A stretch of 64,000 nucleotides of DNA from an uncultured Gemmatimonadales bacterium (GCA_963793305.1 CAWBZV010000005.1:640001-704000), one strand, 5' to 3'; shown: positions 25,983 through 47,095, numbered from the stretch's first letter. Numbers and translations: made by a program. The notes: generated by a model not told the origin, from the letters alone.

Positions 25983-27122
25983 CTTTAGCCGCGGCATTCA
26001 ACGCGCGCCTCACGCAGCTCACATGCTTTGCGTGCGGGCGCGCGCATGACCCGCATGTCCCGCAGCGCGTCTGCACGGCGTGCGGCATGCCGTTGCGCGT
26101 GGACTATCGCCTCGATAGCTCGTCTCTTCCTCGTCAAGCGCTGACCAACCGGCCGGCGTCGCTGTGGCGCTACCGCGAAGTCTTGCCGTTGGCCTCAGGC
26201 GAAGTCACGCTGGGCGAGGGCTGGACGCCGTTGGTCCAGGTCGAGCCTCGCGTCTGGATAAAGGATGAATCGCGCAATCCCACCGGCTCCTTCAAAGCCC
26301 GCGGTCTGGCGATGGCCGTTTCCGTCGCCCGAGCGCTCGGAGCGAAAGCACTGACCGCACCCTCGGCCGGCAACGCCGCTGGCGCTCTCGCGGCGTACGG
26401 GGCGAGAGCCGGTATTCCCGTCGTCGTCGCGATGCCCGAAGACACCCCTCGTGGGTGCATCGAGGAGTGTCGGGTCTACGGCGCGCACGTGGAGCTCGTG
26501 CCGGGGACCATATCTGATGCCGGCAAATGGCTCCGGGACCACGGACCGGCGGACGCATTCAATGTCTCGACGCTCAAGGAGCCGTACCGGGTCGAAGGCA
26601 AGAAGACGATGGCCTACGAGCTCTTCGAGCAATTCGAGGGGAGCCTGCCAGAATGTGATCGTCTATCCCACGGGTGGCGGAACAGGGCTGGTTGGGATGG
26701 GGAAGGCGATCGAAGAGATGCGCGCACTGGGCTGGATCCCGGAGGGAGCAAAACCCCCGAGGTTCGTGTCGGTGCAGACCGCGGGCTGCGCCCCAGTTGT
26801 CCGTGCGTTCGACTTGGGCGCCGAGAAAACAGAGACATGGGCCGACGCCGAGACCCGGGCGTGGGGCCTTCGAGTCCCGTCGCCGATCGGCGGGTTCGTT
26901 TGCCTGAGAGTGATCCGCGAAACGCATGGCACGGCCGTCGCGGTGAGCGAAGGCGAGATCGCGCCCGCCACTCGCGCGCTCTCGGCACAGACCGGCGTCG
27001 ACATCTGCCCTGAAACCGGGGCGGCGTGGTCGGCGTTTGTCTCTTTGCGCGCATCGGGATGGATCACGCCCCGAGACCGGGTCGTCGTCTTCAATACGGG
27101 GACTGGGCTCAAGTATCGTTGA
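25979..27122 (+). CDS. thrC: Threonine synthase (PLP fold II), frameshift near 26650; start uncertain
   Basis: N-terminal CxxC pairs, LGEGWTPL, NPTGSFKARG, SAGNAA, EGKKT, YPTGGG, FNTGTGLKY. Confidence 0.85.
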
Positions 27123-27251
27123 CCTAACCCCGGCCCGTATCTTGATTTGGACGCGCTAGCCGGTTTGTTCCAGCCCGTGTATGTTACGAGCGCGCTACAA
27201 CCCCGAGAGCCTGTGAAATCGAGCATCAAGCCTTCTGCGAGTTCCGATGAT

Positions 27252-28463
27252 ATGGATGCGCCTCAGCTGAGCGCATCATCGGATGTCTTCTTTAAGACCC
27301 GAGATTTTACGCGGCTCGCCGAAGCGAAGGCCTCCGGACTCTACCCGTATTTCGTCCCCATCGAGTCCTCGACCGGCACCGAGGTCGTCATCGACGGCAA
27401 GCGTCGCGTGATGATCGGCTCGAACAACTATCTCGGCCTGACGCACGACCCCCGCGTGATTGCCGCGGCCCAAGCCGCCATCGAGAAGTACGGCAGCGCG
27501 TGCACGGGCAGCCGGTTCCTGAACGGCAACACCGACCTCCACGATCGCATCGAGGTCAAGCTCGCCGAGCTCACCGGCAAAGAAGCGGGCCTGGTGTTCT
27601 CGACAGGGTTCCAGACAAACCTCGGCGTCATCGCGACGCTGGTCGGCCGCACGGACTTCGTCTACATCGACAAGCTCGATCACGCGAGCATCGTCGACGG
27701 ATGCTTCCTATCAGCCGGCGACACCGTCCGGTTCCGCCACGGTGATCTCGGCGATCTCGAGGCCAAGCTCGCCCGAGGCAACCGCAATGGCGGCGGCAAA
27801 CTGATCGTCGTTGACGGCGTGTTCAGTATGGAAGGCGACATCGTCGACCTCCCGCGCTTGGTCGAGCTCTGCGCCCAGTACGACGCCCGTCTCGTGGTCG
27901 ACGACGCACACTCGATCGGCGTCCTCGGCGAGACCGGCGCCGGTACCGCCGAGCACTTCGGACTCACGCCACAAGTCGATCTCATCGTCGGCACGTTCAG
28001 CAAGTCGTTCGCCTCGATCGGTGGGTTCGTCACCGGCGAGCGCGAGGTGATCGAGTACCTCAAGCATCAGGCGCGGGCGCTCATCTTCAGCGCCTCGATG
28101 CCGCCATCGGCGTGCGCCGCGGTACTCACCTGTATTGACATCATGGCCGCCGAACCCGAGCGCCGTCAGAGGCTCTGGGAAAACGCGGACTACATGCGTG
28201 CCGGGCTCCGGTCGCTCGGCTATGATACCGGCGTCAGCGAAACTCCCATCGTGCCGGTGATCATCGGCAACGATCTCATGACGTTCCATTTCTGGCGCTC
28301 ACTCTTCGACAAAGGCGTGTTCACGAATCCAGTCGTGGCGCCCGCCGTCCCCGAAAAAGAATCCCGGATCCGCACCTCATACTCGGCTACCCACACGCGT
28401 GACCAACTCGATTTCGTACTCGATGTGTTCGCCAAAGTCGGGCGAGCGGCCGGCGTGATCTAA
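27252..28463 (+). CDS. spt: Serine palmitoyltransferase-like alpha-oxoamine synthase
   Basis: GLYPYF, SNNYLGL, CTGSRFLNG, DDAHSIG, GTFSKSFAS, IFSASMPP; context of GNAT plus SDR; alternative GTG start at 27213. Confidence 0.8.
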   Translation: MDAPQLSASSDVFFKTRDFTRLAEAKASGLYPYFVPIESSTGTEVVIDGKRRVMIGSNNYLGLTHDPRVIAAAQAAIEKYGSACTGSRFLNGNTDLHDRIEVKLAELTGKEAGLVFSTGFQTNLGVIATLVGRTDFVYIDKLDHASIVDGCFLSAGDTVRFRHGDLGDLEAKLARGNRNGGGKLIVVDGVFSMEGDIVDLPRLVELCAQYDARLVVDDAHSIGVLGETGAGTAEHFGLTPQVDLIVGTFSKSFASIGGFVTGEREVIEYLKHQARALIFSASMPPSACAAVLTCIDIMAAEPERRQRLWENADYMRAGLRSLGYDTGVSETPIVPVIIGNDLMTFHFWRSLFDKGVFTNPVVAPAVPEKESRIRTSYSATHTRDQLDFVLDVFAKVGRAAGVI

Positions 28464-29588
28464 TGACGAACGTCACGGTCAAGGCTGCCGACAGCGCCTC
28501 TGACCGCAAAGAGTTTATCGAACTTCCGTATCGCCTCCACGCAGGGCACCCGTACTGGGTTCCCCCGTTGCGGTCGGAACGTCGCACACTTGCTCGACCC
28601 CGCCAATCCATTCTTCGCGCACGCGGAAGCGCAGCAGTTCATCGCCCGCGACGCCTCGGGGAAGGTCGTTGGTCGCATCGTCGCGGTCAAAAACGACGCG
28701 CACACGGATCGCCATCACGACGGCGTTGGATTCTTCGGCTTCTTCGAGGCCGAGAATGATCCGGGCGTGGCGGCTGCGCTATTTGACACGGCCCGCGACT
28801 GGCTCAAGCAACGCGGCTTCACGACCATGCGCGGCCCGATGAGCCCATCGATCAACGACGAGATCGGTTTTCTGATCGACGGTTTCGACCAGACGCCCGT
28901 CGTGATGATGCCGTACACGCCGCAGTACTATCCCGCCCTCGCCGAGAGCTATGGGTTCACCAAGGCGAAGGACGTGTACGCGTATCGGCACGACAAGACC
29001 GCGCTGCAGCTCGATCGCGTCAAACGGCTGGCCAACGTCCTGGCGAAGCGGAACAACATCGTCGTCCGCCCGCTCAACATGAAGAACTTCCAGGGCAACG
29101 TCGACAAAGTCAAAGATCTCTACAACGCCGCCTGGGAAGCGAATTGGGGCGCGGTACAGATTACCGAAGAGGAGCTGGCCAACGTCGCGAAGCAGCTCAA
29201 GCCCGTCGTGCTGCCCGACCTCGTGCAATTCGCCGAGATGGACGGACAGACGGTTGGATTCTCGCTCGCGCTGCCCGATCTCAACGTCGCCCTGAAACAC
29301 ATGGGCGGCCGCCTGTTCCCATTCGGCTTCCTCAAGCTGCTCTGGTACCAGCGCAATATCCCAGGCCTCCGCGTCTGGGCGCTCGGCGTGCATCCCGACC
29401 ATCGCCGGAGCGGCGTGGCGGAGCTCCTGTACCTGGCCATCGTCAAGAATGGACTCGCCCGCGGGATGGTGTATGGGGAGTCCGGGTGGATCCTCGAGGA
29501 CAACTATTTGATGCGCCAGGCGATCGAGAAGATGGGCGGCCAGCGGTACAAGACGTACCGCGTTTACGACAAGCCGATCGGGGGCTGA
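28463..29588 (+). CDS. GNAT-fold N-acyltransferase, bacterial ceramide synthase-like; frameshift near 28585
   Basis: PYWVPPL, NPFF, GRI, FFGFFE, MRGP, MPYTPQYYP, AWEANWG, LPDLN, LGVHPDHRRSG, WILEDN, YKTYRVY. Confidence 0.8.
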
Positions 29589-30572
29589 ACCATCCCGGCG
29601 TCTCAGCGCTTCGCGCTGGTGACCGGCGCGAGCGGGTTTGTTGGTGGCCATCTGACCGAGGCGCTCCTCGCCGACGGATGGCGCGTGCAATGTCTCGTGC
29701 GCCGCGACAGCAATACGCGCTGGCTCCCCACCGATCGGGTCGAAATCATCTACGGCGACGTCGGCACGCCGTCCACGCTCCCGGATGCCGTCCGCGGCGT
29801 CGACATGGTGTTCCATCTCGCGGCCGTGACCTCAGCCCGGGAGCGCAGCGAATACACCAGGATCAATGCCGGCGGCACGCAAGCCGTCATCGAGGCGATG
29901 CAGGTTGCCGCGCCGGGCGCGATGCTCGTCCTCTGTTCCAGCCAATCGGCGGCGGGCCCGTCGCGCGAGGGACGACCGATCACCGAAGCGGACGCGCCAC
30001 AACCGATTGGTCCCTATGGCGAGTCGAAGCTCGCCGCTGAACAGCTGGTGATCGCGAGCGAGCTTCGTCACATCATTATTCGCCCTCCGGCGGTCTACGG
30101 CCCGCGCAATGTCGACATTCTGTTTGCGTTCCGCCTGGCGAGCGCCGGCATCGCCGTTCGCGTGAGCTCGCGCGGGCAGAAGCTGTCCATGGTGCACGTG
30201 CGCGACCTCGCGGCAGGGCTCGTGGCGGCCGCATCGGCGGAGCATGCGCGCGGCGTGTATTACGTGAGCGGAGGAACGCATGCGTGGGAGGATATCGTAC
30301 GGGGCATTGGCGTCGGGGTCGGCCGCCGCGCACGCGTGATTGTCCTGCCGCGCCCGCTGGTCGTCGCCGCGGCCTGGGGCAACCGTTTAGTGGCGCGCGC
30401 GATACACGCGAAGCCGCTGCTCACGCCAGAGCGTGTCCTCGACATGGTACAACCCGACTGGAGCTGCGACGATTCGCGCGCGCGTCGCGAGCTCGGCTAC
30501 TCGTCCGCCATACCATTGGATGAAGGACTGGCCGAAACGGCCGCTTGGTATCGCCAGGCTGGCTGGCTGTAG
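29589..30572 (+). CDS. NAD-dependent epimerase/dehydratase (extended SDR), ceramide reductase candidate; start uncertain
   Basis: VTGASGFVG, FHLAA, YGESK (YxxxK), RPPAVYGP. Confidence 0.8.
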   Translation, partial: TIPASQRFALVTGASGFVGGHLTEALLADGWRVQCLVRRDSNTRWLPTDRVEIIYGDVGTPSTLPDAVRGVDMVFHLAAVTSARERSEYTRINAGGTQAVIEAMQVAAPGAMLVLCSSQSAAGPSREGRPITEADAPQPIGPYGESKLAAEQLVIASELRHIIIRPPAVYGPRNVDILFAFRLASAGIAVRVSSRGQKLSMVHVRDLAAGLVAAASAEHARGVYYVSGGTHAWEDIVRGIGVGVGRRARVIVLPRPLVVAAAWGNRLVARAIHAKPLLTPERVLDMVQPDWSCDDSRARRELGYSSAIPLDEGLAETAAWYRQAGWL

Positions 30573-32037: not shown

Positions 32038-32523
32038 ATGAGCGCTGCATCGACGCGCGGCGGAGCCGCGTGGTGGGCAGCACTCCTCGTCGTCGCCGCC
32101 ATCGGTCCCTGGGATATGAAGCTGTTCCCAGGGACCGTGGTACCCGACGCATCGGGCCAGGCACGACTCGTGTACGCGGCGTCGCCGTTCGGCGTCGCCG
32201 TCACGGCTGATGGTCACGCGCGCTACGACATCCAGGTAACGGCGTCGGGTCTTCCGAAGCCGTCTACCCTCGGCAGCTACACCGCTTACGTCGCGTGGCA
32301 GGCCTCGCCCGATCTCTCACACTGGACTCGCCTCGGCACGGTCACCAACGGCAAGACGACCGTCGGCTCGGCCGATCTCAACAAGTTCTTGTTCGTGGTT
32401 ACCGCCGAAGCCTCACCCACACCGTCAACCCGCCAAGGTCCCACCGTGCTCCACGGGACCTCGCCCAGCGGCTGGCTCCAATCGTTCCTGACACATCCGC
32501 TGTTCAGAGGCAACGCCCAGTGA
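32038..32523 (+). CDS. Hypothetical exported protein coupled to the multicopper oxidase
   Basis: Hydrophobic N-terminus; SPFGVAVTADG, YVAW, KFLFVVTAE, GTSPSG; stop overlaps the oxidase start. Confidence 0.7.
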   Translation: MSAASTRGGAAWWAALLVVAAIGPWDMKLFPGTVVPDASGQARLVYAASPFGVAVTADGHARYDIQVTASGLPKPSTLGSYTAYVAWQASPDLSHWTRLGTVTNGKTTVGSADLNKFLFVVTAEASPTPSTRQGPTVLHGTSPSGWLQSFLTHPLFRGNAQ

Positions 32524-34213: not shown

Positions 34214-34597
34214 TCAGGGGGTCTCGGGTTCAAGTTCGGCGTCCCGATCGCGCCCCCTTTTTCCCCGGTAAGCAGAGCTTTTCAGGTAGTGTTCAAGTCG
34301 CCGCCCCACACTGAGCGTCAGCGCCATCGTTGCGGCGATCCACATGGGGAGTGCGAGCGGGGCAATGTGATGGAACCGGAAGGCCGTAGCGAGGTCTCCG
34401 TGCAGCGTGGCATTCCAGGCGCGTGTGGTGCCACACAGTGGGCAAGGGATACCCGTGAGCGCCAGAAATGGACAAAGCGGCGGGTGAAGCGCGGGCAGCG
34501 TGCGGAGCGTGTATGCGTATCCCAGGTAGCTCCACCCGACCATGGCCAACGCCGCACGGCCGAGCTGCTGGCGAGTGGCTTCGGGCACGAGCGTCAT
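34214..34597 (-). CDS. DUF2752-family membrane protein
   Basis: CPFLALTGIPCPLCGTTRA...HGD...AF signature. Confidence 0.85.
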   Translation of the reverse strand: MTLVPEATRQQLGRAALAMVGWSYLGYAYTLRTLPALHPPLCPFLALTGIPCPLCGTTRAWNATLHGDLATAFRFHHIAPLALPMWIAATMALTLSVGRRLEHYLKSSAYRGKRGRDRDAELEPETP

Positions 34598-34857
34598 GCC
34601 GTGGCCGGAAGATTCACGACGGTGATCTCAACGATCTCAACGTCGGGCTGCATGGCGTAAATGATGAGATAGATGAGGAGCGGGAGGAGGCAGAGGACGA
34701 ATCCCACGACTGCCCATAGGACGCTGAACTCTTTCTTCTTCTGCAACGTCGTGGAGGTCAACGTCTTGTTGGCAACCACGAACCCCTTGGCCAGATAGCT
34801 GAGGATCGTAGTCTCCATGTCCTGCGTCGACCGCACGTGCACCTTGCTGATTGCCAC
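34594..34857 (-). CDS. Small hypothetical membrane protein
   Basis: GGAGG RBS before GTG; KKKEFS followed by a hydrophobic segment. Confidence 0.7.
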   Translation of the reverse strand: MAISKVHVRSTQDMETTILSYLAKGFVVANKTLTSTTLQKKKEFSVLWAVVGFVLCLLPLLIYLIIYAMQPDVEIVEITVVNLPATA

Positions 34858-35242
34858 GCCATCGCCTCCAAGTAGTGGACGAATGCAGCCGCCCAAATCA
34901 TAGCCACACTAGAGCAATCACGCGAGCGTGCGGCGTCCGCGGCCGACTATGTCGACCGGGTTGCCCGCGCAGATGGCTGCCACGCTATCGTCGTTGTTAT
35001 CGCGACGGTTCGATGTCACCACGCAGTACTTTTGAGTGCGGTTTGCGGTAAATCGGGAAGTGGCGAAGGGGGCGGCTAGGTCGGGACTAGCCTGCATTCG
35101 TGTTGCTTATGACTCATCAATGTCAGAAAACAGCCCCTTTGTGTCAGAATCGTGCCCTGTCGATTGTTCCAGAACGCGAGTCTTTTACTTCGCCACCTAG
35201 GTAACCCACTCGCTCAGCGGGCGCCACTATCGGAGTCACCCT

Positions 35243-35722
35243 ATGCATTCCATTGCCCCACCACTAAGTCTGGTGACGCCCGAGGATCTTTACATACACG
35301 CTTACGACGCATTGAAGAAGGAGATTGCGGAGTCGGTAAAGGACGCTCGTGCGATGGAGCGAAATTCACTGTTGGCTTGTGGTGGGATTTTGACCTATCT
35401 CGCTGGGCGTTGCCCGAATCCGGCGCCCGATGTTCTCTGGTACGTACCTCTAGCGCTTGCACTTTTTGGTGCGTTTCGGACGGCGGCTCTGATGATAAGT
35501 ATCAGACCGCGGGCGATGTACCTCAGCGAGATTGAAGGGCGTAGCCTGCGGAATCAACCGCTGGAAGGATGGGAGCAATACTTCCGATCTCACTACCGCC
35601 GTGGAGTAGGAATCACGATAATTGTCTTCTGGCTTGGCTTGGTAAGCGCGACGGCGGCGATTCCTAGGTCTGCCCCTCGCTTTTGCAGGACGACGAGCGC
35701 CGCGCCTGCAGCGCACTCCTAA
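35243..35722 (+). CDS. Hypothetical membrane protein, lower GC
   Basis: YDALKKEI helix, two TM segments, YLSEIE..GWE, final TM; atypical codon usage. Confidence 0.65.
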   Translation: MHSIAPPLSLVTPEDLYIHAYDALKKEIAESVKDARAMERNSLLACGGILTYLAGRCPNPAPDVLWYVPLALALFGAFRTAALMISIRPRAMYLSEIEGRSLRNQPLEGWEQYFRSHYRRGVGITIIVFWLGLVSATAAIPRSAPRFCRTTSAAPAAHS

Positions 35723-35855: not shown

Positions 35856-36743
35856 TCACACCCAGACGAGCCCTAGGCCAATGGCGATCCAGATCATCTC
35901 GCGGATGCGACTGACGATCAATGCGTAGACGCCAAGGTCCGGCGGCAGGCCGAGAAGACTGAAGATCAGCGACATACTGCCTTCTTTGGTGCCGAGCTCG
36001 AACGGGATAAAGAACGTCGCGTTCGTGATAAACTGCGAGAACGCGCCGATCATGAAGGCGGTGGGATAGTCAACGTCGAGGCCGAGTGCCCGGGTAATGA
36101 ACAGATATTCGAGCATCGACAAGCACCGGCCCACGAACTCGGCGCCGACCGCCATGAAGATCGTCCCGCGGGAATACGCCGCGATCTGCTCATGGATCGC
36201 ATTTAGCTTGGGCCAGCGGCGGAACAATCGGGTCCGAGGACGAAAGAGCGCCGCCAGCGCGAGCGAGCCGCCGGCAAACACGGCCGCGAGCGCAATCAGC
36301 GAGACCGTGGTAGCCGGCGTCCGAGGCAGGAGCACGAATGCGACGGGAATCGCGGTGACCCAGAAGATGAGCTGTCCGAGCGTATGGATCACACGAAACC
36401 CAACAACGGACGCGGTCGCGCGCGACGGTTCGACCCACTTCGAAGCAGCGGCTATCCGGAACGGCTCGCCACCCAAGGGTACCAGCGGCGTGACGTAATT
36501 GATCGCGAAGCTCGAGACGCTGATCACGTACGCGCGCCCGAACGGGATGGCTCCGTCGAGCAGCGCGCGCCAAGCAATCGTGTTGCACGCATACACGAGC
36601 GCCCAGGCGACCACCGATGGCACGATCGCCCAGCGCGCCGAAACGAGATTGTGAAGGAGCCCGCGCACCCCAGCGTGCGCGATGAGCACGACAAAGAGCA
36701 CCAAGGCGCCGGCAAATACCAGCGCCTGAATTTTTTTGTTCAC
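35856..36743 (-). CDS. Lysylphosphatidylglycerol synthase TM-domain (flippase-like) protein
   Basis: AW, INYVTP..PLGGEPFR, FFIPFELGTKEG, SRIRE motifs; multi-TM. Confidence 0.85.
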   Translation of the reverse strand: MNKKIQALVFAGALVLFVVLIAHAGVRGLLHNLVSARWAIVPSVVAWALVYACNTIAWRALLDGAIPFGRAYVISVSSFAINYVTPLVPLGGEPFRIAAASKWVEPSRATASVVGFRVIHTLGQLIFWVTAIPVAFVLLPRTPATTVSLIALAAVFAGGSLALAALFRPRTRLFRRWPKLNAIHEQIAAYSRGTIFMAVGAEFVGRCLSMLEYLFITRALGLDVDYPTAFMIGAFSQFITNATFFIPFELGTKEGSMSLIFSLLGLPPDLGVYALIVSRIREMIWIAIGLGLVWV

Positions 36744-37729
36744 ACGCCCACGGCGCAGCCAGAGCGCGCGGATGCATATGCGGCCTCGACGACCGCCGCC
36801 ACGCGCGTGATGTCCGCGAGCGCCTCGTCGGCCTCCCCACGATCCATCGCGTCGGCGAACGCGCCGAACAAGCCGGCGAACCAACTGGCGTACGATCGCT
36901 TATCGAGCTGCGCGGAGTAGTCGACCTCTTGTCGCGGCTCGCCGGCTCGCTCGAGGCTCAACGTGCCGCCATGCCAGTCGATGGTCCCGCGCTCGCCGAT
37001 GATGCGCACGCGGTTCTCGCGATGCCCGGCGGCCCACGTCAACAATATCGTCGCGATCCGGTCGGCAAACCCAACGAGCAGGTGCGCGGTGTCCTCGACC
37101 TCGTACTCCTGATGTCGCAGTCGTCCAGTCCACGCCTGGACCGTCCGCGGTTCGCCGCCGAGATCGAACAATGAGTACAGGAGATGCGTGCCATGATCGA
37201 GCAAGATGCCACCGCTGCTGTCGGCACGAATTGATCTCCAAGGCACCGCACCGCCGTCAGCCTGAAGCCGATACACAGACAGCTCGGCCAGATGCCAATG
37301 TCCAATGGCTCCCTCCCGCACCCATTCGCCAATCTGCCGCCAGACCGGATTGAACCGATACTGGTGGCAGGGGATGACCACGCGACCGGCCTTCCGCGCG
37401 GCCGTAGCCAGCGTATCCGCGTCCGCACGAGTCACTGCCACGGGCTTCTCGCACAACACGTGGAGGCCGTTCTCCAGCGCCCACAACGCTAGCGGCAGGT
37501 GCGATGATGGCGGCGTGCAGATGTCGATGAAATCGAGCGGCCCAGCAGCAAGTAGGGACGGCCGGTCCCTGAAGAGAGGCACGCCATCGATCGGTCCGAC
37601 GTTGGGATCCGAGTCGAGCGCCGCCACGATCTCCATGCGCGGTGCAGCCGCTTTAAACCCCGGAAGGTGCGCCGTGCGGGCGATGCCGCCCAGGCCGATT
37701 ACCGCGCCTCGATATGCTCGGCGTCCCAC
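36740..37729 (-). CDS. Gfo/Idh/MocA-family oxidoreductase (inositol 2-dehydrogenase-like)
   Basis: VIGLGGIA, ICTPPSSH, VLCEKP, RFNP, GGILLDHGTH, VEDTA. Confidence 0.9.
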   Translation of the reverse strand: MGRRAYRGAVIGLGGIARTAHLPGFKAAAPRMEIVAALDSDPNVGPIDGVPLFRDRPSLLAAGPLDFIDICTPPSSHLPLALWALENGLHVLCEKPVAVTRADADTLATAARKAGRVVIPCHQYRFNPVWRQIGEWVREGAIGHWHLAELSVYRLQADGGAVPWRSIRADSSGGILLDHGTHLLYSLFDLGGEPRTVQAWTGRLRHQEYEVEDTAHLLVGFADRIATILLTWAAGHRENRVRIIGERGTIDWHGGTLSLERAGEPRQEVDYSAQLDKRSYASWFAGLFGAFADAMDRGEADEALADITRVAAVVEAAYASARSGCAVGV

Positions 37730-38529
37730 ACGAACACGAAGAGGACGAGATTGAGCGGCACCACCGTAATCCACAGCATGGCCGCCGGCCACCCCGGCAC
37801 GACAGTCACCAGCAGCAACAGCCACCGCACGTTCTGCCCGAGCCACATGCACCGCCCGAGCAGCGGCGCCGCGTGTCGGACGTACGCCTCGCGCGCCGCG
37901 GCGGACAGCGTCCCTTGCCGGCGCTGCCGCTCCAGCGCGACCGTGGCCGGGAACATGCTCGCCTGTCGCCGCACCCACGAACCATACAGCCAATTTTTGA
38001 GCGAGCCGCCTTGAAGGTCCTCAGGCAGCTCCAGCTCCGAGTCCTGCCCGCTCATGGCCAGAAACGCGTGCCGTATGAAATCGACGGCCGCCGCCTGCCA
38101 CGTATGGCTCAGCAGCGCGGCCAGCGCCAGCGCGATCGCGCCGGCCACGGGCCACCCGAGGAAGACGATGAGCCGCGCCCCGAGATGCGCGTACAGGTTG
38201 ATGAACCGCGCGCTGTCCGACAGCCCATCGAGCATGCGCCCCAGCGGCGTCGACGTCCCGCGCAGCCGCGCCAGTTGCCCGTCGACGCTATCGAAGATGT
38301 CGGAGACGATGAAGAGCACCCATCCGATCGCGTTGATCTCGATGCTCTGATAGAAGAACAGGTGCCCGGCGACGAGACCCGTCGCCAGGCTCCACATCGT
38401 CACCTGATCGGGCGACACCCGCGTCGGCGCCAGCGCTCGAGCGAGTCGAATCCCGATGGGCCGAAAGAAACGGAGGTCGAGCCACTCCTCGACCTCGTCC
38501 CCTTTCGTCGCCAGCGTGCCAGTCGTCAT
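37699..38529 (-). CDS. CDP-alcohol phosphatidyltransferase family protein
   Basis: SPDQVT and canonical DSVDGQLAR...GRMLDGLSD motif. Confidence 0.93.
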   Translation of the reverse strand: MTTGTLATKGDEVEEWLDLRFFRPIGIRLARALAPTRVSPDQVTMWSLATGLVAGHLFFYQSIEINAIGWVLFIVSDIFDSVDGQLARLRGTSTPLGRMLDGLSDSARFINLYAHLGARLIVFLGWPVAGAIALALAALLSHTWQAAAVDFIRHAFLAMSGQDSELELPEDLQGGSLKNWLYGSWVRRQASMFPATVALERQRRQGTLSAAAREAYVRHAAPLLGRCMWLGQNVRWLLLLVTVVPGWPAAMLWITVVPLNLVLFVFVWDAEHIEAR

Positions 38530-39860
38530 ACCCGCGCGGCGGCTTCGCCCAACACACCCTTCATGACGGCGAGCGCGCTCATCGCCTGCTCGGTCGTGAT
38601 CACGAGCGGCGGGTTGATCCGCACTTCGGGGTTGTAGATCATCGCCAGCACGCCCCTCGCGAGGAGCGTGTCGAAGATCCATCGCGCGATGTCTTTCGGC
38701 AGAAGCTTGGTCGTGCCCGGATAGACGAGATCCATGCCGATCATGAGCCCGCGCCCGCGGACGTCACTGACGATCGGGATGTCTTTCTCCCACGTTTTCA
38801 TCTCGGCCATCATAGTGGCGCCGAGCACACGACTATGCTCGACGAGCCCCTCTTCGATGATGGTCTCGATGCTCACCCGTGCCGCCGCGGCCGCCAGCGG
38901 ATTCCCGCCGTAGCTCGACGAGCTCCCGCTCGGATTCGCCCAGGGCTTGGCCCGCGCGATCTCCTCGCGCGCGATGATGCCCGTCATCGGGAATCCACCG
39001 CCGAACCCTTTCCCGACCGTCATGATATCGGGCAACACCTCCTCGTGCTCGATCGCGAACATCTTCCCGGTTCGCCCGAACCCGGTCAGCATTTCGTCAG
39101 CAATCAGCACGGCGCCGATGCTATCCGCGAATTTTCTGAGGATCCGCAGGTAGCCGGGGGGCGGCACGATGTTGCCCGCCGTCCCCTGGATCGGCTCGAC
39201 GATGATCGCCGCGACGTCATTCGAGGTCTCGAGCGCGATTTTCTTTTGCAAGAACTCGACGCAATGCCACTCGCACGAGGGAAATGTCTTGTCGAACGCG
39301 CAGCGAGCACAGGAGGCGTACGGCGAGCTGTAGGTACCCGGCATCAGCGGCCCCAGCCCGTGCTTGAAGGAGCCACCGAGCAAGGGAAGGACGCCGGCGG
39401 TCTTGCCGTGGAATCCGCCCCAGAAGCCGACAAACTCGGTCTTCCCAGTCCACGCCTTCGCTAGTCTGAATGCCGACTCGACGGCCTCGGCGCCGCTCGA
39501 ATAGAGCTGTGTCCGATTGAGATCCCCGGGCGTGATGTCGGCGATCAGCTTGACCAGCGCAACCCGATGCTCCGACGTAAAGCTGCCGACATGCACCCGT
39601 GCAACTTGCCGCTGCATGGCCGCGACGAACTTGGGATGCGCATACCCGAGACTGGCCACGCCGACCCCGGCCAACAGATCCGTGTAGCACTTCCCGTCGA
39701 CATCATAAAGGAGCGCGCCTTCGCCGTGGTCGATGCTCAGCTTGCTGAACAGCGCGACGCTCTGCGTACCGGGCGCGAGATAGGCGGACTCGGCGTCAAA
39801 CGCCGCCAAAGACTTTGGACCGGCCGCTGTCTCTGGCCGTGGCTGAACCGTCAACGTCAC
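38526..39860 (-). CDS. Class III PLP aminotransferase
   Basis: SGAEAVE, FHGKT, EPIQG, LIADEMLTGFGRTG, DIMTVGKG, SSYGGNP, RGRGLM. Confidence 0.93.
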   Translation of the reverse strand: MTLTVQPRPETAAGPKSLAAFDAESAYLAPGTQSVALFSKLSIDHGEGALLYDVDGKCYTDLLAGVGVASLGYAHPKFVAAMQRQVARVHVGSFTSEHRVALVKLIADITPGDLNRTQLYSSGAEAVESAFRLAKAWTGKTEFVGFWGGFHGKTAGVLPLLGGSFKHGLGPLMPGTYSSPYASCARCAFDKTFPSCEWHCVEFLQKKIALETSNDVAAIIVEPIQGTAGNIVPPPGYLRILRKFADSIGAVLIADEMLTGFGRTGKMFAIEHEEVLPDIMTVGKGFGGGFPMTGIIAREEIARAKPWANPSGSSSSYGGNPLAAAAARVSIETIIEEGLVEHSRVLGATMMAEMKTWEKDIPIVSDVRGRGLMIGMDLVYPGTTKLLPKDIARWIFDTLLARGVLAMIYNPEVRINPPLVITTEQAMSALAVMKGVLGEAAARV

Positions 39861-40753
39861 TTCGACTGAATCCTCGGTGGAAGCGGGGGGTCCGGGGGGC
39901 GTACTTGGGGTTGCCCCCCGGAGGCGAACCGACCAGTCGAGCGGCGCGCCAGCGCCGAATCGACGAGCCGCGGAGCGGCTTCGTCAGCGTACGCGGCAAT
40001 GTGCCGCGCTGCCTCGTCGCGAAATGGCGCGAAGCTCGGCCAGTCGTTGAGATCAATCAGCACGGGCCGATCTGGTTCCGGAAACGCGACATCACCCCCG
40101 AAAACGCCCAGCCCAAGCCGCTCGGCGGCGGCAAACGCCAAGGTCTTCAACCGCTCGCCGTCCACGTCATCGGCGCCGTAGTACCGGAAGAATCGCCCGT
40201 CGGCGACGCCGTAGAACTTCACGATCGGCCCGGCCACGTGTTCCTGCATCGCCACCCGCGCGATGCCGCGCGCGGCAAACACGCGCAACGCCTCGGGGAT
40301 CTCCTCGCGCCAGAGCGATACGACATCCTCGGCCCGCTCGGCGTGCACGTCGCCGCGCTTGAGCCAGACGCGCCGCCCGTCCGCGCCAAACCCGTCGAGC
40401 TCAGGATCGCCGCTCGTCGGAACGATCGCGGTGCGCGGAATCTGATCGCCGAGGAGCACCACCATCTTGTGCCGGTGACACCCGAGCACGCTCGACGGGC
40501 GATTCATGATCGGCAGCCCCGCGTGCTCGAGCGAAAGCAAACGCTCCGACGCCGCGGGTCCTTGGCACATGTTCAGCACCAGATCGGCGTCGGTCAGCAG
40601 CTCCAGCTCGAAGGTGCTCTCGTTGGCGCGCGTCGCCGACCAGCCGAGGGCTTCCAGCTCGGCCACCGTGGCATCGAGAATGGCGGTGTCGTTCGTCCGA
40701 TGCTGATTCGGCGAGTACGACGCCTGCCGATAGAGCGCGACGAGCCGCTTCAC
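39857..40753 (-). CDS. ATP-grasp fold protein (ligase or ITPK1-like kinase)
   Basis: WLKRGD, MQEHV, KFYGV, GLGVFGGDV, LIDLNDWPSF. Confidence 0.8.
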   Translation of the reverse strand: MKRLVALYRQASYSPNQHRTNDTAILDATVAELEALGWSATRANESTFELELLTDADLVLNMCQGPAASERLLSLEHAGLPIMNRPSSVLGCHRHKMVVLLGDQIPRTAIVPTSGDPELDGFGADGRRVWLKRGDVHAERAEDVVSLWREEIPEALRVFAARGIARVAMQEHVAGPIVKFYGVADGRFFRYYGADDVDGERLKTLAFAAAERLGLGVFGGDVAFPEPDRPVLIDLNDWPSFAPFRDEAARHIAAYADEAAPRLVDSALARRSTGRFASGGQPQVRPPDPPLPPRIQSK

Positions 40754-41469
40754 AACGCCAATGCCTCAGTGGCGAGCAGCGCGTCGGCGGCGTCGATATC
40801 GCGCTTGTGGTCGAGATCGACGATCAGCGCCACCTCGGTCGTCGCCACGCGGGCGCCCTCGTCGACGAGCGCCGACAAGAAATAGCGCATGCGGGATCCG
40901 CCGTCGCGCCAGACGCGCAACGCCGTTGTCCGCGCCCGTGGCCCGAACGCGTAGACGCCACCCGTCACGCACGGCGGCATCACCGGCCGGCTGCCGATCC
41001 GAATGGCGTCGCCACCCGGGGCCCGCTCGACCCACAGGGGCCGCTCGTCGTCGACATGCGGCGTCACCGCGAGAACGACGTCAGCGCTGTCAGCGATGTG
41101 ACGAATCGACTCGTCATAGACTCGTTGCCAATCGCGCGCGGGCATGACGGTATCGACCATGCTGCAGAACACCGGACCGGGCGGCATGCGGAGCAGCGCC
41201 TCGGCGAGCGTATGCAGCGACAATGGGGTCTCGCACGCGATCACCCGAGGACGGCCGATCGACAACTCGATGTTGCGCACCGAGGCGATGACCTCGGGGA
41301 AGGTCGACCGGATCATGCAGGTGATGTCCTGACATCCGATCGCACCGAACGTCTCCGCGAGCCGCAGGATCTGCGATCGCCCCGCGACGGACACCGCCGC
41401 CTTCGGCTCGGCCACGCCATCGGCCGCGAGTCGCGAGCCCTCTCCGCCCGCGAGGATCAGGCCGTGCAC
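40750..41469 (-). CDS. Nucleotidyltransferase (NTP_transf family)
   Basis: GLILAGGEGSRL...EPKA; C-terminal IVDLDHKRDI. Confidence 0.9.
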   Translation of the reverse strand: MHGLILAGGEGSRLAADGVAEPKAAVSVAGRSQILRLAETFGAIGCQDITCMIRSTFPEVIASVRNIELSIGRPRVIACETPLSLHTLAEALLRMPPGPVFCSMVDTVMPARDWQRVYDESIRHIADSADVVLAVTPHVDDERPLWVERAPGGDAIRIGSRPVMPPCVTGGVYAFGPRARTTALRVWRDGGSRMRYFLSALVDEGARVATTEVALIVDLDHKRDIDAADALLATEALAL

Positions 41470-42155
41470 ACGACCTCGGGCAGCTCGGTGAGCGACGCGA
41501 TGCGCGCGGTCGGCGCGCAATCGTTCGGCGTCTCGCGCTCGGGCTCCGTCAGCCAACACGTACAGAGTCCCAGCGTGCGCGCGGGCCGAATGTCGGCGTC
41601 GAGATTGTCGCCGACGATCCACGCCGCGCCGGGCTCGACATCGAGCGCGGCCAACGTCGCGTTGAAGATCTCCGGATCGGGCTTCGACGTGCCGAGCACG
41701 CCCGAGTCCGACACCGTCTGGAAGTAGTTCGTGAGGCCGAGCTCCGCGAGACAGCACGACAAATTGCCGGTGAAATTCGAGACGATGCCGAGTCGATACC
41801 GATCCGCCAGACTGGAGAGCACGCGCGCGTTCCGTTCGGTCGTGCGCACGGCGTCGCGGTGAAAACGATCCGCGACCTCGGTGAAGTCGATAGTGGCGCC
41901 GTCGGGTACCATCTCCTGCAGCAGCTGCGCTTGGGCATCGATCATTGCGCGAAATCCGAGACGCCGAATATCCGGCCGTCTCTCGAGTGCACGATCAGAT
42001 GCTCGGAAGACCGTCTCAAAGTTCCCGGAATCCAGGGAGCCGCCGAGTCCCCTATAGGCCGCGTGGAAGCGAGTGCTCCACCTCAGGCCGTCAGCGTCGA
42101 GCGTTCCGCCAAAGTCGAAGAGTACCGCGCGAACAGGGGTGGCTGATTGCACCAC
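41457..42155 (-). CDS. HAD-superfamily phosphatase
   Basis: FDFGGTLD, IVSN, KPDPEIF, VGDNLDADI. Confidence 0.9.
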   Translation of the reverse strand: MVQSATPVRAVLFDFGGTLDADGLRWSTRFHAAYRGLGGSLDSGNFETVFRASDRALERRPDIRRLGFRAMIDAQAQLLQEMVPDGATIDFTEVADRFHRDAVRTTERNARVLSSLADRYRLGIVSNFTGNLSCCLAELGLTNYFQTVSDSGVLGTSKPDPEIFNATLAALDVEPGAAWIVGDNLDADIRPARTLGLCTCWLTEPERETPNDCAPTARIASLTELPEVVCTA

Positions 42156-42195: not shown

Positions 42196-43923
<1,728 letters not shown>

Positions 43924-45571: not shown

Positions 45572-46192
45572 ATGGTCTCTATCGCCGAACGCGTGAAAGG
45601 CATCCTGCTGCACCCGCGCGGCACGTGGGCCACGATCGACACAGAACAGACGACGACCCGGGCGCTGTACCTCCATTACATCGCGCCACTCGCCGGACTT
45701 TCGGCCCTTGCACGGCTAATCGGCGTGGCGTTCGTCGGGTTCCCGGTCATCGCCCGCCCACCGTTCTGGCAGGTGCTCGTCTGGGCCGCGCTCTACTTCC
45801 TGTTCGAGCTCCTCGCGGTCAACGTCATCGCGTTCGTCATAGACTGGCTTGGCCCGAGACTGGGGTGTCCCGAGTGCGAGGGGATACCGCGCCACATTCA
45901 AGCGCTGAAGGTCGCCACCTATGCCCGCACGCCGCTGTGGATCGCCGGACTCGCCCTGATCGTTCCCACGACCGAGGTCGTCGCCATCGCGATCGGCGCT
46001 CTCTACTCCGTCTACTTGCTCTGTCTCGGCCTTCCGGAGTTAATGAAGGCACCGAAGCATCGGGTCCCCGTATACGCAATGGTAACGGTCGTTGCGGCCG
46101 CCGGGGTCTACGGGCTCCTCCGGATACTCGTGAACACGATTCTTGCGATGGCGTTTGGGTTCGCCGTCGACGCTCGGGACTACACGTCATGA
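45572..46192 (+). CDS. Yip1-family membrane protein
   Basis: ERVKGILLHP..W, Y..TPLW, LYSVYLL.LGLP.LMKAP. Confidence 0.88.
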   Translation: MVSIAERVKGILLHPRGTWATIDTEQTTTRALYLHYIAPLAGLSALARLIGVAFVGFPVIARPPFWQVLVWAALYFLFELLAVNVIAFVIDWLGPRLGCPECEGIPRHIQALKVATYARTPLWIAGLALIVPTTEVVAIAIGALYSVYLLCLGLPELMKAPKHRVPVYAMVTVVAAAGVYGLLRILVNTILAMAFGFAVDARDYTS

Positions 46193-47095
46193 ATACAAGA
46201 CCGCTCGGTAACTCCGATCTTCATATCACGCCGCTCGGCTTCGGCGCCTGGGCGGTCGGTGGCGCCTGGCAATTCGGTTGGGGACAGCAAGACGATAACG
46301 ACTCCATCAGCGCGATAGAGCGTGCACTGGATCTCGGCATCAACTGGATCGACACGGCGGCCGTATATGGCCTCGGCCACTCCGAGGAAGTCGTCGCGCG
46401 CGCGCTCGTGGGTCGCGCGAAGCGTCCGTACGTGTTCACGAAGTGCGGGCTCGTGTGGGATGCCCAGGGCAACACCACACGGTCCCTCGCATCAGTGCGG
46501 AGCGAGCTCGAATGCCAGTCTCCGTCGTCTCAAAACGGACGTCATCGATCTCTATCAGGTGCACTGGCCTCCGGCGAACCTGGCCGAGCTCGAGCCAGGC
46601 TTGGAAGCACTCGTCGAAGCGCAACGCCAAGGAAAAATCCGGCACATTGGCGTGTCGAACTTCAATGTGCCGCTCATGGAACGCGCCCGTCGCGTCGCGC
46701 CCATTGTGTCTTTGCAACCGCCTTACTCGATCATTCGTCGCGATATCGAGTCGGAGATTCTGCCGTACTGTCAACGAGAGCACATCGGCGTGATCGTGTA
46801 CTCGCCGATGGCGTCAGGGCTCTTGTCGGGTGCGATGACGCGCGAGCGTATTGCGAACCTGCCGGCCGATGACTGGCGGCGGCGGTCGTCGGCGTTCAAC
46901 GAGCCCAATCTTTCGCGCAACCTCGCGATCGTCGAGGAGCTCCGCGAGCTCGGTTCGCCGGGGGAAGTGGCCATCGCCTGGACACTGAAAAATCCGGCGG
47001 TCACGGCGGCGATCGTTGGCGCGCGGAACGCCGAGCAAGTCGACGGCTGGATCGGCGCGGCCGCGCTCGATCTTTCAAACGTCGCGGTCGTATGA
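46189..47095 (+). CDS. Aldo/keto reductase; frameshift near 46510
   Basis: GFGAWAVGG, IDTAAVYG, SLRRL.TDVIDLYQVHWP, IGVSNF, YSPMASGLL. Confidence 0.92.

Follow-up and report, generated by a model that had tools for sequence, protein, structure and literature searches.

A conserved seven-gene operon of the Gemmatimonadota with a proposed role in building an amino-inositol phosphate lipid head group

Introduction

What is built by the seven overlapping genes that occupy positions 35856-42155 on the minus strand of a 64-kb stretch of DNA (GCA_963793305.1 CAWBZV010000005.1:640001-704000, referred to at its full length as the window) from a soil Gemmatimonadaceae bacterium (genome G000)? All seven open reading frames (ORFs) are intact, and the operon is real, conserved and uncharacterized, representing a variant of a proposed inositol lipid pathway that carries a testable prediction. 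We propose, with moderate confidence and along a route of which we infer every step, that the operon makes a head group of amino-inositol (inosamine) phosphate, which is put on a membrane lipid, probably ceramide. That the product is an inositol-derived lipid head group appears very probable and, granted such a head group, a net amination appears quite probable; the exact order of the proposed steps is tentative and may well differ. Literature searches, whose coverage of subscription and older papers is thin, found neither the full gene set nor an inosamine lipid described, in agreement with an earlier sequence-only reading of the window, which knew of no characterized pathway of this composition. 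A term count in PMC12904256 gave no match, and the available portions of PMC11334938, PMC9969633 and PMC11324152 contain nothing on such a lipid.

Organization of the operon

The seven overlapping minus-strand genes claimed in the sequence-only reading are all open, and neighboring ORFs overlap at all six junctions (by 13, 4, 4, 4, 31 and 4 nt) with start positions picked from homologue alignments (42155, 41469, 40753, 39860, 38529, 37729 and 36743). The seven family labels given there also hold, six through Pfam curated cut-offs and the ATP-grasp label through fold searches and a structure model based on an alignment of 115 homologues (pLDDT 96.4), the Pfam search with this protein having returned no match.

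Along the minus strand, the first gene (41457..42155) encodes a HAD-IA phosphatase of 232 amino acids (PF00702; 57 bits) with a DFGGTLD motif I, conserved D14/D20/K158/D183 and no predicted membrane segment, which is likely an inositol-phosphate phosphatase. It is followed by a gene (40750..41469) for a MobA-like nucleotidyltransferase (239 amino acids; PF12804; 34.9 bits), which holds the GGEGSRL...PK, D106 and D218-x-D220 motifs and aligns with its cluster orthologues; a PDB search with this single sequence gave no match, and the protein is likely a cytidylyltransferase, with CTP as its predicted substrate. The ATP-grasp protein (39857..40753) comprises a core of ~261 amino acids and a repeat-derived tail, and carries R94, K132, K179-F-Y, G-G-D221 and D234-x-N236-x-x-P-S-F. 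The next gene (38526..39860) encodes a class III pyridoxal phosphate (PLP) aminotransferase of 444 amino acids (PF00202; 310 bits), in which K284, D255 and R414 are kept and which is likely an inosose aminotransferase. The 276-amino acid CDP-alcohol phosphotransferase (37699..38529; PF01066; 39.5 bits) carries the family motif DxxDGxxAR...GxxxDxxxD as D80-x2-D83-G-x2-A-R...G97-x3-D101, with these columns conserved. A Gfo/Idh/MocA protein of 329 amino acids (36740..37729; PF01408/PF22725), likely an inositol dehydrogenase, follows with a GxG motif, an acidic D39, which we take to be typical of NAD+ use, and EKP and D178/H182, which are presumably functional residues. The last gene (35856..36743) codes for an LPG-synthase-TM membrane protein of 295 amino acids (PF03706; 81 bits) that is MprF-flippase-like or HpnL-like (HpnL 63.5 bits, under the cut-off); it is predicted to be a flippase, on the assumption of an MprF-like flipping role, and is dispensable in some clusters.

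The operon is spanned by two long contigs, ~99.6% alike, of an independent short-read assembly. Contigs of relatives from one soil RNA run, mostly 90-99% alike, cover parts of the operon and of the serine palmitoyltransferase-like gene discussed below, which is not proof of transcription. A scan of the operon found no sigma-70 promoter and no excess of terminators.

Conservation and distribution

Being present in one copy and specific to the cluster, the ATP-grasp gene was chosen as bait. Within the host phylum, 37/301 genomes carry it, and the best 80 of at least 596 confirmed stretches in a scan of a genome collection fall in the Gemmatimonadota, Ignavibacteria, Bacteroidota, Verrucomicrobiota, Myxococcota, Syntrophobacteraceae and Elusimicrobiota. 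No match was found in a sample of 250 further genomes of the phylum of genome G326. The gene order is the same in all nine related loci of a first comparison set, as far as their contigs extend, and is complete in 17/20 further loci, of which one ends at a contig edge and two are without an LPG-synthase-TM match. A survey of 117 loci (107 distinct) yielded 74 with full context. The nucleotidyltransferase, CDP-alcohol enzyme and HAD genes each occur in 74/74 of these, the LPG-synthase-TM gene in 61 and the aminotransferase and dehydrogenase genes in 64, with all seven genes present in 41 of the 43 full-context Gemmatimonadota-type loci. The operon genes are thus kept together, contrary to one of the outcomes that would have refuted the sequence-only proposal.

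Many relatives (L038, L074-L081, L088, L090, L144, L149 and L150) also encode a YdjM-like membrane protein of 145 amino acids and another CDP-alcohol phosphotransferase, which is short; behind these, a PAP2 protein or an alpha/beta hydrolase plus GT4 glycosyltransferase is often encoded. The additions may serve further tailoring or a second transfer. The titles of three further loci, L122 (Hyphomicrobiales), L160 (Syntrophomonadaceae) and L167 (Bifidobacterium), clash with their positions in gene trees, where they group with Gemmatimonadota, Ignavibacteria and Verrucomicrobiota-type rows, pointing to mislabelled bins or transfer.

Relationship to the alternative inositol lipid cluster of the Bacteroidota

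The available text of PMC9246714 proposes an alternative inositol lipid cluster, described there as unconfirmed, in which NTP transferase, CDP-alcohol phosphatidyltransferase and HAD genes are usually, with some exceptions noted there, located near an inositol-phosphate synthase (MIPS) gene. This cluster is reported from Phocaeicola (Bacteroides) vulgatus and Prevotella, the species carrying it make phosphoinositol dihydroceramide (PI-DHC), and CDP-inositol is the proposed donor, with diacylglycerol (DAG) as the proposed direct acceptor. In B. finegoldii, the gene order is MIPS, nucleotidyltransferase, hypothetical protein, CDP-alcohol phosphotransferase, LPG-synthase-TM and HAD. Five proteins of this cluster each match a single G000 protein, which in every case is the product of the operon gene (30-34% identity; E 1e-20 to 4e-36), including the nucleotidyltransferase (31%; E 2e-21), the CDP-alcohol enzyme (31%; E 1e-28) and the HAD protein (31%; E 1e-20). 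Furthermore, the 'hypothetical protein' between the nucleotidyltransferase and CDP-alcohol genes in the P. nigrescens, B. finegoldii and P. distasonis records is a homologue of the ATP-grasp protein. Five of the seven operon genes therefore correspond to the alternative inositol lipid cluster, whose core includes the hitherto overlooked ATP-grasp gene, and the link to this cluster made in the sequence-only reading is borne out by orthology.

The two systems have in common the nucleotidyltransferase, CDP-alcohol phosphotransferase, HAD, LPG-synthase-TM and 'hypothetical' genes and a reliance on MIPS, with CDP-inositol as donor in the proposal for the Bacteroidota. Unlike the alternative cluster, the operon has an added class III aminotransferase and Gfo/Idh/MocA dehydrogenase, and a linked trio of ceramide-type genes. 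MIPS is located 270 kb from the operon in the host genome, rather than in its vicinity, and the operon is as such classed as a variant and not as a plain member of the cluster. In the available text of PMC9246714, the ATP-grasp gene is given no role and the HAD protein is read as the PI-DHC synthase, whereas the operon HAD protein, with no membrane segment, is here read as a phosphatase.

The CDP-alcohol enzymes of amino-type (long) and non-amino (short) clusters interleave in trees, and likely use similar donors. In a midpoint-rooted tree of 56 ATP-grasp rows, the ten short-cluster proteins group in a single branch (98/91) that lies within the amino-type Ignavibacteria, whereas in the CDP-alcohol tree (30 of 48 rows, after two paralogues, six Verrucomicrobia-type and ten near-redundant rows were dropped) a single clade for 14 short-cluster rows is rejected (p-AU 0.002). 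Without an independent root, the two trees disagree on whether one or several changes took place, and either the long or the short form may be ancestral.

The ATP-grasp protein

The sequence-only reading left the role of the ATP-grasp protein between phosphorylation and aminoacylation. A single-sequence model of this protein reaches a pLDDT of 37.7, and a PDB search with the single sequence gave no match. In the alignment-based model the fold is ATP-grasp, with its best matches to ArgX (Z 20.5; root-mean-square deviation 2.9; 243 residues aligned) and RimK (Z 20.0), followed by PPIP5K (Z 17.4; 3.4; 235 aligned) and ITPK1 (Z 17.2; 3.3; 237 aligned). At the level of motifs (alignments to 7pup and 1z2n versus 7qyr, 5zct and 7drm), its KFY, GGD and DxNxxPSF match those of ITPK4 (KFY, GFD and DLNYLPSF) and Entamoeba ITPK1 (R, GID and DVNVFPSY), whereas RimK and PsnB hold R and E-x-N at the same positions. 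K179 and R94 are found in 115/115 homologues and D234 in 114/115.

The available text of PMC6900528 reports that ITPK1 phosphorylates inositol monophosphates and describes such ATP-grasp kinases from eukaryotes and Asgard archaea, the main text being silent on bacteria. The operon protein shares with ITPK1 and PPIP5K the ATP-grasp fold and the K-F/V-Y/F, G-D and D-x-N-x-x-P-S-F/Y motifs, but differs in its 14-18% structural identity, its shorter substrate loop and the lack of an invariant equivalent of R212.

The protein might alternatively be a ligase that adds an acyl or aminoacyl group to the new amine (or to another one), with an N-acyl amino-inositol lipid as the product. This role would agree with the carboxylate-amine ligases among the top fold matches and with the position of the gene directly ahead of the aminotransferase gene in amino-type loci. 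The RimK-type R and E-x-N are, however, replaced by K and D-x-N, and the gene and its motifs are kept equally, the motifs being identical, in 11 loci without an aminotransferase, where the cluster has no amine source, so that this alternative is very improbable. The motifs and the retention of the gene without an amine favor phosphorylation, and we consider it likely that the protein is an (amino)inositol kinase, its likeness to ITPK1 being a functional claim only. Of the two roles offered in the sequence-only reading, phosphorylation is thus retained and aminoacylation disfavored.

Furthermore, the ATP-grasp domain is fused to the nucleotidyltransferase in eight of 12 long homologues scanned. 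P. distasonis (L205) carries a short cluster with no MIPS gene in the stretch read, and Table S5 of PMC9246714, as available, gives its reference strain without a MIPS match; this species would thus depend on inositol salvage, and free inositol would need a kinase. The presence of both a phosphatase and a kinase would be sensible in a route that dephosphorylates the ring, modifies it in its free form and then phosphorylates it at another carbon.

Two ATP-grasp copies per cluster are found in L195 (7636-9307), L197 (8864-10503) and L231, both copies being motif-intact in L195 and L197, and may perhaps carry out two phosphorylations.

The aminotransferase and dehydrogenase

The genes that distinguish the long from the short form occur as a pair. 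In the first set, 86 distinct loci extend 3.5 kb or more downstream; both genes are present in 75 of these, neither in 11 and a single one in none. In at least five phyla, the pair is embedded between the genes for the ATP-grasp protein and the CDP-alcohol enzyme. Within the class that includes G322 (Melioribacter), the bait is present in 20/201 genomes, with the aminotransferase gene directly behind it in 14 and seven short clusters, and genome G381 holds one long and one short cluster, each with its own MIPS. The bait is found in 19 of 251 genomes of the phylum of G325, with the aminotransferase gene behind at least one copy in all 19. No aminotransferase orthologue is encoded elsewhere in the three short-cluster genomes tested (best match 35-38%).

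The aminotransferase is the best-conserved operon gene, mostly with at least 49% identity among cross-phylum orthologues. K153, T227, D255 and K284 are invariant in 81 rows, and R414 is found in 79/79 rows covering the position. In an alignment to PuuE, K153, T227 and M257-L/I258 set it apart from GABA aminotransferase. These differences and its high conservation indicate that it is a dedicated subfamily rather than a housekeeping enzyme, with K284 taken to be the PLP lysine and D255, R414 and the differing positions presumed to have functional roles. Among the best 25 NCBIfam matches listed, it lies under every equivalog cut-off, and a search of plasmids gave no aminotransferase with more than 40% identity, hence no named orthologue. 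ESM Atlas searches in the analysis of the operon returned only 'hypothetical' or generic class III clusters. A match to PbfA (277 bits; cut-off 525) raised a phosphonate lipid as a candidate product, which was rejected as no phosphonate genes occur among the neighbors examined, a genome-wide PepM search not having been made. The dehydrogenase scores 75 bits against the IolG model, for which the cut-off is 355.

In the StrI/StsC/StsE branch of streptomycin biosynthesis, inositol is converted to an inosamine, which is then phosphorylated. A MIPS, phosphatase, Gfo/Idh/MocA dehydrogenase and aminotransferase are likewise proposed, in the available text of PMC10949010, as the route to neo-inosamine-2 in hygromycin A (Hyg18/Hyg25/Hyg17/Hyg8), and the operon host has, by enzyme family, the same four activities for the conversion of inositol to inosamine, the Gfo/Idh/MocA protein being paired with the PLP aminotransferase and MIPS and phosphatase being available in the genome. 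The aminocyclitols of hygromycin A and streptomycin are antibiotic-bound, without CDP activation or CDP-alcohol transfer, in contrast to the lipid-linked system proposed here. According to the same portion of PMC10949010, this dehydrogenase family is paired with DegT-type aminotransferases in 15,139 cases versus 1,236 for class III; the 'standard route' to an aminocyclitol invoked in the sequence-only reading thus fits the activities proposed for hygromycin A but was overstated for class III enzymes.

The pair could also act without net amination of inositol, through ring epimerization, on another polyol or sugar (kanosamine-like) or as an unrelated catabolic pair. Neither enzyme has a close characterized relative, the class III matches include racemases and a lyase, and three loci separate the aminotransferase from the dehydrogenase. 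The tight pairing and embedding of the genes across phyla and the presence of MIPS in the same operons argue against this alternative, as do the intact PLP lysine, D255 and R414; the racemase-type Asp and Tyr positions, which we take to map to T227 and F150, hold T227 and mostly F150. Such a role is improbable, and inosose amination is the preferred reading of the pair.

Source of the inositol

MIPS is absent from the 64-kb window, as the sequence-only reading correctly stated, the genome carrying its copy at the distance given above. MIPS genes are located inside 10/64 full-context amino-type loci, including Ignavibacteria operons, and in or beside L235, L237 and L241-L243 of another phylum. 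Where the earlier reading proposed an amino-cyclitol or an amino-sugar, the MIPS genes inside amino-type operons support the cyclitol and disfavor the sugar.

The chemistry of CDP-alcohol phosphotransfer on inositol phosphate is shared by the operon with B. thetaiotaomicron BT_1522-1526, the mycobacterial phosphatidylinositol phosphate (PIP) synthase and IPCT/DIPPS. PIP synthase, however, uses CDP-DAG and needs no nucleotidyltransferase, and G000 encodes a PIP-synthase-like enzyme apart from the operon (166.5 bits, against a cut-off of 170, versus 34.5 bits for the operon CDP-alcohol enzyme). Its gene overlaps MIPS (L002:9384-11404; G000:C5:971384-973403), as in a mycobacterial-type phosphatidylinositol route in the Gemmatimonadota, and, as judged from sequence, this pair would supply ordinary phosphatidylinositol. 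Given this separate pair and the co-occurrence of long and short clusters in G381, the product of the long operon is expected to differ.

The lipid acceptor

A trio of genes not mentioned in the sequence-only reading is located on the plus strand of the window, 5.3 kb from the operon (27147-30572). It comprises a serine palmitoyltransferase-like gene (spt; 27147..28463; best NCBIfam match SerpalmtaseCFB, 532 bits, below the cut-off of 640), a GNAT acyltransferase gene that is bCerS-like by context (28463..29588; GNAT Pfam match; an extra base is present near 28578) and an extended SDR gene that is CerR-like by context (29619..30572; PF01370; 110 bits). According to the available text of PMC11087976, ceramide synthesis in bacteria is encoded by spt, bcerS and cerR. 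The SDR gene directly abuts the operon in seven loci, with the trio convergent with the operon in L036, L041, L072, L073 and L097, whereas in L037 and L095 it immediately precedes the operon and shares its strand. The spt and GNAT genes furthermore flank or join the operon in Verrucomicrobiota (interleaved) and Bacteroidota loci. At least two of the three genes occur in the fetched stretch in 19/43 Gemmatimonadota-type and 25/64 amino-type loci. A GNAT homologue is present in 37/37 operon-bearing Gemmatimonadota genomes and, within the host family, in 3/3 operon-bearing versus 7/67 other genomes. It is likely that ceramide is an acceptor in the host lineage, and of the two acceptors named in the sequence-only reading, ceramide is supported here by the linkage of the trio, with DAG disfavored in this lineage. 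A second spt-GNAT-PAP2-like-SDR set (G000:C3:6060-9015; L207) is in several frame pieces, either decayed or affected by assembly errors.

The same head group might instead be placed on DAG (or an ether lipid) or on a hopanoid polyol. DAG is the acceptor proposed for the short cluster in the available text of PMC9246714, and 24 of the 43 Gemmatimonadota-type loci have fewer than two ceramide genes in the fetched stretch. A hopanoid would agree with the HpnH-like radical SAM, IspH and MlaC genes that flank the operon in L231-L234, with the HpnL-like nature of the LPG-synthase-TM protein and with the squalene-hopene cyclase of G000. This cyclase is, however, on another contig, the GNAT gene accompanies the operon throughout the operon-bearing Gemmatimonadota, and in the host genus and family several arrangements place the spt trio next to or ahead of the operon. 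A non-ceramide acceptor is accordingly unlikely in this lineage, although the hopanoid-type neighbors elsewhere and the hopene cyclase of G000 indicate that the acceptor may vary.

A further alternative is a soluble solute, namely a phosphodiester resembling di-myo-inositol phosphate but aminated, which could be made by IPCT/DIPPS chemistry, whose pairing of a nucleotidyltransferase with a CDP-alcohol phosphotransferase is also that of the operon. The match to the DIPPS model is weak (31.6 bits, against a cut-off of 580), LPG-synthase-TM genes accompany most loci, species with the short cluster make inositol lipids, and the neighbors are lipid genes, namely spt/GNAT/SDR and MlaEFD. The Mla-type ABC genes held in Ignavibacteria operons are presumed to be such from sequence features. 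A soluble product is unlikely, its probability being very small, and the lipid product expected in the sequence-only reading is upheld.

The proposed pathway and its product

In the pathway favored here, the MIPS encoded outside the window would provide inositol-3-phosphate, from which the HAD protein would strip the phosphate to give inositol. The NAD+-type dehydrogenase would oxidize one ring hydroxyl to yield an inosose, which the class III PLP enzyme would transaminate to an inosamine. The ATP-grasp protein would phosphorylate this inosamine at a new position and the nucleotidyltransferase would convert it to CDP-inosamine, from which the CDP-alcohol phosphotransferase would transfer phospho-inosamine to the 1-OH of a ceramide made by the linked spt-GNAT-SDR proteins, with Kennedy-type polarity, the LPG-synthase-TM protein flipping the resulting phospho-inosamine ceramide. 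Alternatively, oxidation and amination may take place on the phosphate or CDP form, with the HAD protein acting last. The predicted product is zwitterionic, with a computed mass 0.984 Da below that of the anionic inositol phosphoceramide. Its predicted head-group ions are m/z 258.038 and 240.028 in negative mode, versus 259.022 and 241.012 for inositol phosphoceramide, and m/z 260.053 in positive mode.

Several observations weigh against this pathway. The parent pathway is itself unconfirmed, and kin among the loci and genomes counted are not independent. For the kinase, the whole fold is nearer to ligases than to ITPK1 and PPIP5K, by ~3 Z units; weak Pfam matches among the 115 homologues are divided between ITPK (eight; PF05770, best E 0.002, below the cut-off), RimK (eight) and ATPgrasp_ST (16); and position 190, to which ITPK1 R212 is inferred to map, is R in 34/115. 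For the amination, class III enzymes are the minority partner of the dehydrogenase family in the portion of PMC10949010 cited above, and the dehydrogenase is without a close characterized or solved relative. Three of ten extended long loci in the phylum of G325 have an aminotransferase but no adjoining dehydrogenase. In G559, where the pair is split at the locus, the dehydrogenase adjoins a second ATP-grasp gene and MIPS; the best dehydrogenase matches in G722 and G692 (40-41%) have no cluster gene alongside. The presence of MIPS in 40/43 operon-bearing genomes is a count without an operon-negative baseline. For the acceptor, the spt protein lies under its curated cut-off and the bCerS and CerR labels derive from context, nearly every genome of family f2 (123/125) has the GNAT gene irrespective of the operon, and the hopanoid-type genes beside the operon in other phyla and the G000 cyclase are likewise unfavorable.

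Other features of the window

A GC-rich dispersed repeat of 95 bp with three hairpins (39885..39979, minus strand; folding z -3.6) lies within the ATP-grasp ORF, at its 3' end, and has no pathway role. This REP/MITE-like repeat has 87 other full or partial matches in G000 and is present in same-genus genomes too. The contig of a relative skips it, and reads also link it to a site near 32050. The host ATP-grasp ORF is 298 amino acids long versus ~263-290 in close relatives, and it overlaps the aminotransferase ORF because the repeat displaced the usual stop.

Extra single bases at 26652, 28578, 31980 and 33918 are missing from two short-read assemblies, and explain why the genes for threonine synthase, GNAT and multicopper oxidase are split; the GNAT gene is whole in G001, and its break in the window is an assembly error. 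An aldo-keto reductase gene (45625-47095) and a transporter gene in L002 are likewise split.

A Ser/Thr kinase gene (42196-43923) on the operon strand, 40 nt upstream of the operon, encodes a TTQPT/TTEPT repeat linker and a TPR-like end. It was rejected as an operon member, adjoining the operon only in same-genus loci (3/9). Between the operon and the ceramide-type trio, a stretch of lower GC content (34594-35722) holds two small ORFs without a Pfam match; in G003 these are not at that position, and the operon and trio abut.

Implications

A wider proposal is more speculative and on balance doubtful, namely that bacteria of at least five phyla make phospho-inosamine ceramide by a CDP-aminocyclitol route with ITPK1-like bacterial kinases. 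The cluster of gut Prevotella and Phocaeicola would then be a kinase-dependent, reduced form from which the amination pair was lost more than once, and the kinase would let Parabacteroides lacking MIPS use dietary inositol. The candidate ITPK1-type bacterial inositol kinase would also be a missing enzyme of the still unconfirmed inositol lipid pathway of gut Bacteroidota, for which cultured strains exist. As the predicted head group is isomeric with hexosamine phosphate, it is easily misassigned. If the pathway favored above is correct, abundant uncultured soil and groundwater bacteria would contain a class of membrane lipid recognizable by a definite mass signature, which suggests that aminocyclitol chemistry, known from antibiotics, also serves membranes.

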